From: Candidatus Freyarchaeum deiterrae
GTDB taxonomy: Archaea; Asgardarchaeota; Jordiarchaeia; Jordiarchaeales; Jordiarchaeaceae
Assembly (NCBI GenBank): GCA_037305845.1
Contig: CP147778.1
Coordinates: 544,001-608,000, forward strand
Length of the DNA: 64,000 nt
Direction of reading: 5' to 3'
In this document: piece by piece, positions 38,412-39,715 of the stretch
Layout: each line of letters starts with the position of its first letter
Numbering within the stretch: the stretch's first letter is position 1
Position numbers and translations under genes: made by a program
The notes under the pieces: generated by a model
The model's database searches: none
What the model was told of the DNA's origin: nothing
The model's input: only the letters and a program-made list of their open reading frames with translations

Positions 38412-38759
38412 TTAAAGGCCCACAAGAGCCGATAGGATATAGCCTATCATGTAAGAGCGTAGTATGTAATCGTAGTACCAGCCGCTTCCGAAGAAAACAC
38501 CGTTCAAAACCACTCCCAGTTCTACCAGAAGATTTGTCCCTGCAAATACTTGAACACCCAAAGAGACTCCGAGTATTGTTCCCAAGGGCGACAGACCCAA
38601 CCCTTGAGCATCAGTAATTATGCTACTCACAATGTTCAGTATCTGCGTTTGTGTAATCATTAGGAAAGTTATTAGTCCGAACCATATGCCTATTATAACC
38701 AGAATTGCGAGAGCTAACCTTGCTACTGCTTCTTCTTTCAAGTTTTTCATCTCCTCCAA
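38412..38759 (-). CDS. Small membrane protein
   Basis: About 3 hydrophobic segments. Confidence 0.55.
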   Translation of the reverse strand: MEEMKNLKEEAVARLALAILVIIGIWFGLITFLMITQTQILNIVSSIITDAQGLGLSPLGTILGVSLGVQVFAGTNLLVELGVVLNGVFFGSGWYYDYILRSYMIGYILSALVGL

Positions 38760-39008: not shown

Positions 39009-39042
39009 AAAAAATTATCACTAGTTAAAAAATGGAAAGATG

Positions 39043-39118
39043 GGAGATTTGGTCGCTTTGGCTAAGTTTCGGGAACAAAATTTCATTTATCTTTTCGATT
39101 TTATTCCCACCAAATCTC
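39043..39118 (-). promoter_or_regulatory. Candidate SECIS element (circularly permuted, K-loop form) in the 3' UTR of the selenoprotein gene
   Basis: mRNA: GAGAUUUGGU GGGAAUAAAAU CGAA AAGAUAA AUGAA AUUUUGUUCCC GAAA CUUAGCCAAAG CG ACCAAAUCUC; 10-bp outer stem, 11-bp inner helix, tandem G.A core. Confidence 0.55.
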
Positions 39119-39576
39119 TAACTTTTTAATTTTTTAAGGACTTCGAATATTTCCTCGTTTTTGGGGATGTCCTGCATTGAATCGCCGTAGTGCGCATACT
39201 GTATGATTCCTTCTTTGTCTACTACTAGTAAAGCGGGCATTCTTCCCAATTTGAGTGGGTTAACCTCTTGTTTCAACAAGTTGGGAACCTTTTTGGTTTG
39301 GTCGTAGTATACTGGGTATTTTCCTTTTGCGTATTTTGTTTCCATTTTTTGGGAGTTTGCCAGTGTGTCTGCGGTAATGGGGTATAATGCGGCATTTAGC
39401 TGATCGAATTCGTTGAGGTGGTTTGCTAGTCTGGCGATGTGTGCTCTGCAGTATGGTCAGTTGATACCTCTGAGAAGGACTACTACCACGTTTTTCTTAC
39501 CTTCAAAGTCCTTTATGTTGACATTTTCTCCTCTTGAGTTCGGCAGGCTGAATTCTGGAATTTTTGTGCCTACCAT
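39118..39576 (-). CDS. Peroxiredoxin-like (AhpC/TSA, thioredoxin fold) selenoprotein, Sec at codon 40
   Basis: MVGTKIPEFSLPNSRGENVNIKDFEGKKNVVVVLLRGIN-TGA(39459..39457)-PYCRAHIARL continues in frame into the 39118..39345 ORF (PALLVVDKEGIIQYAHYG...IPKNEEI); 152 aa. Confidence 0.88.
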
Positions 39577-39715
39577 TTTGAACTTGTCATTCGTCTTGTA
39601 GGCACCTCCTCCATTCGCTAAAAGATAGAATAGTATATTTTTATTTATAGTTTTTGCGGTTAATATAGGGTTGTGGATATTAATGAAGCTAAGGAAATGG
39701 CAACACTATTGTTTT

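Follow-up and report, generated by a model that had tools for sequence, protein, structure and literature searches.

A conserved three-armed RNA behind Asgard prxL selenoprotein genes, probably a SECIS element that lost its kink-turn core

Introduction

How is a UGA codon read as selenocysteine (Sec) if the RNA behind the stop codon lacks the core of a SECIS element? The question is raised by a locus of Candidatus Freyarchaeum deiterrae (GCA_037305845.1), whose genome is one contig of 3,576,204 bp. The window analysed here is a stretch of 64,000 nucleotides (CP147778.1, positions 544,001 to 608,000), and coordinates without a contig label are positions in it. An earlier note on this DNA had read the RNA that begins at the stop codon of a selenoprotein gene as a circularly permuted SECIS. 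In that reading the functional kink-turn would be a K-loop at the helix tip, with the conserved AAA placed after the helix and the mRNA entering at the apical end. Is the element permuted, or is it an ordinary SECIS that has lost a part? To answer this, the 3' regions of its orthologs were compared with each other and with the SECIS elements of other Asgard Sec genes.

Results

The prxL gene and the fold of its 3' element

The gene and the parts of the element are as follows, all on the minus strand.

39118..39594 (-): gene of a Prx-like (PrxL, AhpC/TSA fold) selenoprotein; stop codon UAG at 39120-39118
39457..39459 (-): in-frame TGA (Sec), first position of the UxxC redox motif, the single TGA in the ORF
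39109..39118 (-): 5' strand of the outer helix P1, starting at the last base (G) of the stop codon
39044..39053 (-): 3' strand of P1 (10 bp)
39098..39108 (-): 5' strand of P2 (11 bp), the equivalent of SECIS helix II, with ordinary pairs where the tandem G.A core would be
39071..39081 (-): 3' strand of P2, pairing with 39108-39098
39082..39097 (-): apical loop L2, 16 nt, beginning CGAAAA and ending AUGAA
39054..39068 (-): P3 hairpin, with 5' strand 39068-39065, loop UAGCCAA 39064-39058 and 3' strand 39057-39054
39027..39042 (-): pyrimidine/U-rich tract directly after P1

The gene itself is already known, since Prx-like selenoproteins of the same subfamily are within the published Asgard set. 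PrxL orthologs are present in 100 of 400 Asgard genomes, and the TGA is retained in 105 of 107 ortholog matches. The earliest in-frame ATG of the ORF is at 39576. The true start is probably the ACG at 39594-39592, which aligns to the Met of orthologs and lies about 10 nt downstream of AGGAGG. This ACG start is common to all 6 Freyarchaeia and one other PrxL gene. Among 98 orthologs the start codons are ATG (48), TTG (23), ATT (14), ACG (7) and others (6); the near-cognate ones might serve translational tuning. Downstream of prxL there is a 115-aa hydrophobic ORF without Pfam match (38412-38759, minus strand).

The helices described in the earlier note were found on the minus strand where it had put them. 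The outer stem of 10 bp is formed by 39118-39109 and 39053-39044, and the 11-bp helix has one U-G pair that favours the mRNA strand, as the pair breaks on the opposite strand. The loop that starts with CGAAAA and ends with AUGAA is also present (39097-39082). It has an A-run on its 5' side and a G on its 3' side, as in canonical Asgard SECIS, and in this lineage it is possibly closed by a tandem G.A / RUGA K-loop. The minimum free energy of the element is -23.5 kcal/mol (z = -4.37), and none of 200 shuffled sequences is equally stable. RNAfold, which the earlier note had suggested as a check, predicts neither the G.A pairs nor P3 in this copy; both rest on comparison with orthologs. Such comparison also changes the meaning of the letters after the helix. 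The GAAA (39070-39067) is there, but its A's form the 5' side of P3, and the mini-stem CUU/AAG that follows is a degenerate remnant of a 4-bp helix, as pairing across orthologs shows. P3 keeps 2 of its 4 pairs in this copy, while 85 of 104 orthologs keep all four. The tract 39042-39027, similar to U-rich tails in orthologs, is probably an archaeal terminator.

Conservation and covariation behind Sec genes

Is the fold a property of the whole family? We collected 105 Sec-type PrxL 3' regions from about 100 Asgard genomes, one of them a partial match whose UGA was not seen. Nearly all 105 copies are followed by the same three-armed element, and P1 begins 0-13 nt from the stop codon in 101 of them. 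In a plain MAFFT alignment of 92 sequences, 93% of the cells of P1, P2 and P3 are paired, and two-sided changes occur in 19 of 22 pairs. By helix, P1 has 95.7% of its cells paired with two-sided changes in 4 of 7 pairs, and P2 has such changes in all 11 pairs; compensatory changes are seen in all three helices. The pairing score exceeds all 500 shuffles and all slid registers, though kinship among the sequences inflates controls of this kind. These counts were made on a stated structure after RNAalifold had recovered only P3 from the MAFFT alignment, a shortfall probably caused by misregistration of P1 and by the AU-rich helices. The conservation and covariation that the earlier note called for are thus present, and the three-armed RNA behind prxL is confirmed as a real structure.

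The element also follows the Sec codon. The earlier note had regarded an equal occurrence behind Cys orthologs as evidence against its proposal, and the element was not found behind either of the two non-Sec PrxL orthologs, which are sisters on the tree and represent one lineage. In these two genes (L055:2143-2601 and L067:504-959) Asp replaces Sec (DLFC). In G141 the non-Sec ortholog sits directly behind a Sec copy. The element is absent as well behind Bcp/AhpC paralogs and behind five bacterial Sec homologs. In a scan of five whole genomes, a covariance model of the prxL element matched nothing but prxL 3' ends. Less selective searches were of little use: a degenerate DNA pattern gave about as many matches over 400 genomes as its reversed control, and a generic core-free scan of the genome for three-way junctions gave 47 matches, which include 4 canonical elements and miss this copy, so it is not specific. 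PrxL paralogs with two UGA codons (UxxU) in L063, L084, L011, L076 and L079 carry the same core-less element.

Canonical SECIS of other Sec genes

What do other Sec genes use? Six others were examined in this genome, namely hdrA, vhuD, an hdrA-vhuD fusion, selD, vhuU and a HesB-like gene. All six are followed by an element with the canonical core, P1 and P3, which folds as a larger three-way junction: an outer helix, the SECIS hairpin, and then a hairpin with a GC-centred loop. The earlier note had proposed to inspect such genes; the three-way junction is shared, but the core is canonical in all six. Across Asgard classes the core was parsed in 23 of 31 selD, 22 of 26 Sec-vhuD and 26 of 31 vhuU genes, and in none of 9 non-Sec controls. 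P3 appears in 70 canonical Asgard elements, with GC in or at its loop in 65 of the 70. These counts come from a permissive hairpin finder, and in the rough alignment of canonical P3 arms 71% of cells are paired. Many of these loops resemble GNRA tetraloops.

Several observations were made on these genes. The HdrA-MvhD fusion (L041, G000 C1 ~8400-5999, minus strand) has four in-frame UGA codons at Cys positions, all served by a single SECIS in which the stop codon doubles as the AUGA. The HesB-like ORF (G000 C1 ~775970-776420, plus strand) has a UGG motif and a canonical-core SECIS with the same three-way junction; its family is outside the seven Asgard selenoprotein families of PMC11227280. 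A Sec-vhuD gene of another genome (L211, G145 C11 ~388000, minus strand) is followed by a three-way junction without AUGA/GA core or K-loop, a second core-less example. The selD gene (L031, G000 C1 ~2458220-2458249, plus strand) has a 30-nt in-frame insert which contains TAA and resembles a bulge-helix-bulge intron. An in-frame TAA interrupts selD also in four congeners and in G009, and in some congeners the Sec-vhuD matches are broken by a similar stop, which is perhaps just the end of the gene.

Search for a canonical SECIS near prxL

Might a canonical element lie elsewhere near the gene? A strict scan for the AUGA/GA core found nothing in the interval 39900-38400, and in orthologs it matched 8 of 105 regions against 4.4 in shuffled sequences, near background. 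A simplified version of the published loose pattern, with no indels and no energy filter, matched 97 of 105 real and 85 of 105 shuffled sequences. As real and shuffled sequences are matched nearly alike, this pattern cannot establish a canonical SECIS. The methanogen-type pattern (GAA/A bulge and G-C pairs) has one match in the 105 regions, and this element does not have it. A covariance model of canonical elements gave nothing significant around the gene; in forward orientation it matched prxL hairpins weakly and below significance, and this copy not at all, and its sensitivity is low, with 2 of the 6 canonical elements of the genome found, both from its training set. Thus the check for a canonical SECIS near the gene, also proposed in the earlier note, found none by the core scan or by this model.

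Collinear or permuted

Do the parts of the prxL element stand in the canonical order? Profiles were built from 70 canonical Asgard SECIS as parsed in this analysis. Scored with them, each collinear feature fits 91-99% of the 105 copies, while the permuted core is positive in 49% and reaches canonical strength in 33%. AAA lies within the first 7 nt of the apical loop in 96 of 105 copies (in canonical loops the AAA is imposed by the parser). AAA after the helix scores positive in 54% with the profiles and is counted in 55 of 105 copies. A G near the 3' end of the loop is found in 99 of 105, or in 77 of 105 against 51 expected under a stricter symmetric test. P3 with GC is present in 104 of 105. 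The spacing from apical loop to P3 has its mode at 19 nt in prxL and at 19-20 nt in canonical elements. The P2 stem has a mode of 11 bp, about 2 bp above the canonical 9 bp, and the apical loops are 11-17 nt long, mostly 12-16. UGA stands just 5' of P2 in 2 of 105 copies; the bases at this place are the end of P1. No GA/AA quartet partner was found after the prxL stem.

The two places for the adenines can be told apart. The A's after the helix form the 5' side of P3 and covary with the bases opposite them in that helix. In GC-rich genomes (L073-L075) they are gone, while the AAA in the loop is kept. Furthermore, the P2 loop is an ordinary apical loop. Within lineages the two kinds of loop are almost the same: the selD loop of one genome (G160) differs at one to three positions from the prxL loops of G155 and G160, and that of another (G170) matches a prxL loop of the same family. 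In canonical elements, as here, P3 comes after P2 on the 3' side.

What then is the apical K-loop? The full RUGA/GA pattern, which has the tandem G.A/A.G pairs and the U at L3 of a K-loop, occurs in 35 of 105 copies, this one included. The protein tree requires at least 12 changes of its state, in genes that keep their UGA throughout. In register, it is found in 6/6 Freyarchaeia, 5/5 members of the Borrarchaeum family, 3/3 of family f24, 2/3 Atabeyarchaeia-like copies and 19/76 of the large Lokiarchaeia family. Of the 38 copies with tandem GA, 35 also have RU despite their wide divergence, and selection may therefore act on the K-loop in those lineages; tandem GA occurs in 5 of 70 canonical loops. 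We take the K-loop as a possible accessory L7Ae site in some lineages, not as the core. Two other roles for the loops were considered and rejected. One is mimicry of the GCCA end of tRNA-Sec by the P3 loop, as canonical P3 loops are mostly GCAA/GCGA-like. The other is a pseudoknot between the P2 and P3 loops, for which no consistent complement was seen by eye.

Sec machinery of the genome

SelD, EFSec and SepSecS are encoded in the genome, and EFSec is closest to Methanococcus SelB. A tRNA-Sec candidate (G000 C1 ~810400-810500, minus strand) with a UCA anticodon, an apparent T-arm intron and a GCCA end was found by hand; ARAGORN and Rfam missed it. The L7Ae-domain matches in the genome are only 123 aa and 114 aa long, and no L7Ae-domain protein of SBP2 size was found among them. 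This is in line with the published absence of SBP2 from Asgards.

Discussion

The fold, its conservation, its association with Sec, the collinear order of its parts and the missing core are all observed. They are best explained if the prxL element is a collinear Asgard 3'-UTR SECIS that lost its basal kink-turn core, which we consider probable from the comparison of sequences. Asgard SECIS are three-way junctions in which the outer helix P1 is joined by two arms: the helix P2, whose apical loop is rich in A, and the short hairpin P3, whose loop has GC at its centre. An AUGA/GA kink-turn core forms the base of P2 in most Asgard genes. In the prxL subfamily about two ordinary base pairs would take the place of the core (P2 of 11 bp rather than 2 + 9), which leaves the distance between the two loops unchanged. 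These loops, of P2 and P3, might be recognized by the recoding machinery, i.e. EFSec with Sec-tRNA, directly or via an adaptor. Alternatively, P3 could make a tertiary contact, given the GNRA-like loops of canonical elements. Since the canonical covariance model has no significant prxL matches, the homology with canonical SECIS rests on motif and geometry.

Why could the core be lost? In the eukaryotic SECIS, the feature recognized by eEFSec is the apical loop and the feature recognized by SBP2 is the kink-turn. As Asgards have no SBP2, the kink-turn would be dispensable in them and could be lost. Binding of one SECIS feature by eEFSec and of another by SBP2 is described in PMC11881835, which also cites in vitro work where archaeal SelB failed to bind its cognate SECIS. 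A more tentative scenario, which we hold rather doubtful, goes further. In the ancestral PrxL element the site of an L7Ae-family protein would have shifted along the helix, from base to tip, where a K-loop holding the AAA replaced the lost kink-turn; it would have been kept in Freyarchaeia, Borrarchaeum and others and lost later elsewhere. The GC loop of P3 would be a determinant common to all Asgard SECIS, dropped toward eukaryotes when SBP2 took over the core.

Might the element have no part in recoding at all? It could be derived from a SECIS and act in the 3' UTR to stabilize the mRNA, to protect its 3' end or to control it in response to selenium, possibly via L7Ae, with Sec insertion directed otherwise. 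The core required by every published Asgard model is absent (PMC4989117, PMC11227280), the sequence is unusually conserved for a SECIS, a U-tract lies just downstream, and the frequent near-cognate start codons of prxL hint at translational control. However, no other SECIS candidate was found near the gene; the element is lost together with Sec in the non-Sec orthologs and is absent where bacterial recoding applies; and its position, geometry and loop motifs match the SECIS of other Sec genes. We therefore consider a purely non-recoding role unlikely.

The circularly permuted SECIS of the earlier note is less probable still. This copy fits it well (10.4 bits for the permuted core), RUGA/GA stands in register across several lineages, and L7Ae does bind K-loops (PMC1874613). 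Its origin can be explained, because this copy belongs to the K-loop subclass and has a degenerate P3. Yet a K-loop complete in a third of the copies and changing repeatedly while UGA stays, A's that pair within P3, and a P2 loop equal to canonical apical loops do not suit a permuted core, and the comparison largely refutes this reading. An independent small RNA, such as a box C/D guide with a C'/D' K-loop, or a terminator hairpin or repeat, is scarcely probable: archaeal C/D guides typically contain K-loops (PMC1874613 and its reference 48), but the element has no CUGA or RUGAUGA box and no Rfam match, does not resemble a terminator, and occurs as one copy per gene, always at the 3' end of prxL. 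Least probable of all is recoding by another SECIS in the vicinity of the gene, eukaryote-like or of methanogen type; type I eSECIS-like elements are reported as the major form for prxL (PMC11227280) and lokiSECIS are reported behind Loki PrxL genes (PMC4989117), but the PrxL genes of the published set belong to two subfamilies, this one and another, and the scans described above speak against it.

If the prxL element is indeed a core-less SECIS, what does it mean? The AUGA/GA kink-turn core is the ground on which the Asgard SECIS is held to be the forerunner of the eukaryotic one. Here a widespread element keeps Sec without that core. This suggests that Asgard ribosomes read the A-rich apical loop together with a third arm that has been overlooked, and that only the coming of SBP2 made the core obligatory. 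It would shift where the archaeal recoding factor should be sought and gives baits and mutants for a SECIS-binding factor. It may also bear on the failure of a lokiarchaeal SECIS in Methanococcus (PMC11881835). In addition, a model of the prxL element could find missed Asgard selenoproteins.

Comparison with known systems

By location and association with Sec, the prxL element is most likely a SECIS, one without the core that serves as criterion for the published lokiSECIS. Neither P3, even for canonical elements, nor a core-less type is described in the texts of PMC4989117 and PMC11227280 or in that of a 2026 review (PMC13188914), which give a hairpin only. The supplementary SECIS tables of PMC11227280 and PMC11291895 hold no matching text, and a literature search for three-way-junction or permuted SECIS returned nothing relevant. 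The earlier note was therefore right that standard SECIS models miss the element (no Rfam SECIS family matched it, even at E 10, and the AUGA/GA core scan was negative) and that its shape is absent from published Asgard models; the topology, however, is collinear and core-less, not permuted.

How does it compare with each known system? Like the lokiSECIS, or Asgard eSECIS-like type I (PMC4989117, PMC11227280), it stands in the 3' UTR beside the stop codon of an Asgard selenoprotein gene in a genome without SBP2, and it has the upper helix, the A-rich 5' side of the loop and the G near the loop 3' end. Unlike it, the prxL element has no AUGA before or GA after the helix, has a helix of about 11 bp with a loop of 11-17 nt instead of a 9-bp stem with an 11-nt loop, and is a three-way junction with P3, an arm that the two papers do not describe. 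With eukaryotic SECIS (types I and II) it shares unpaired adenines at the end of a helix of about 11 bp and the presumed action from the 3' UTR. The eukaryotic elements have a kink-turn core for SBP2 with AAR 11-12 nt above it, but the prxL element has no such quartet at the helix base and no large internal loop, it carries the extra arm P3, and it has no Rfam match. Like the methanogen SECIS (PMC9622424, PMC11881835), it is a short 3' UTR element near the stop, and the SelB of its archaeal host resembles that of Methanococcus, but the GAA/A bulge and G-C pairs are missing. The K-loop of archaeal box C'/D' guides has its counterpart in the 35 copies where tandem G.A closes the terminal loop with RUGA on the 3' side; unlike those guides, the element has no C/D boxes, its K-loop is not conserved family-wide, and its L7Ae site is putative. 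L7Ae is known to bind K-loops, among them that of the apical loop in the normal SelN SECIS (PMC1874613).
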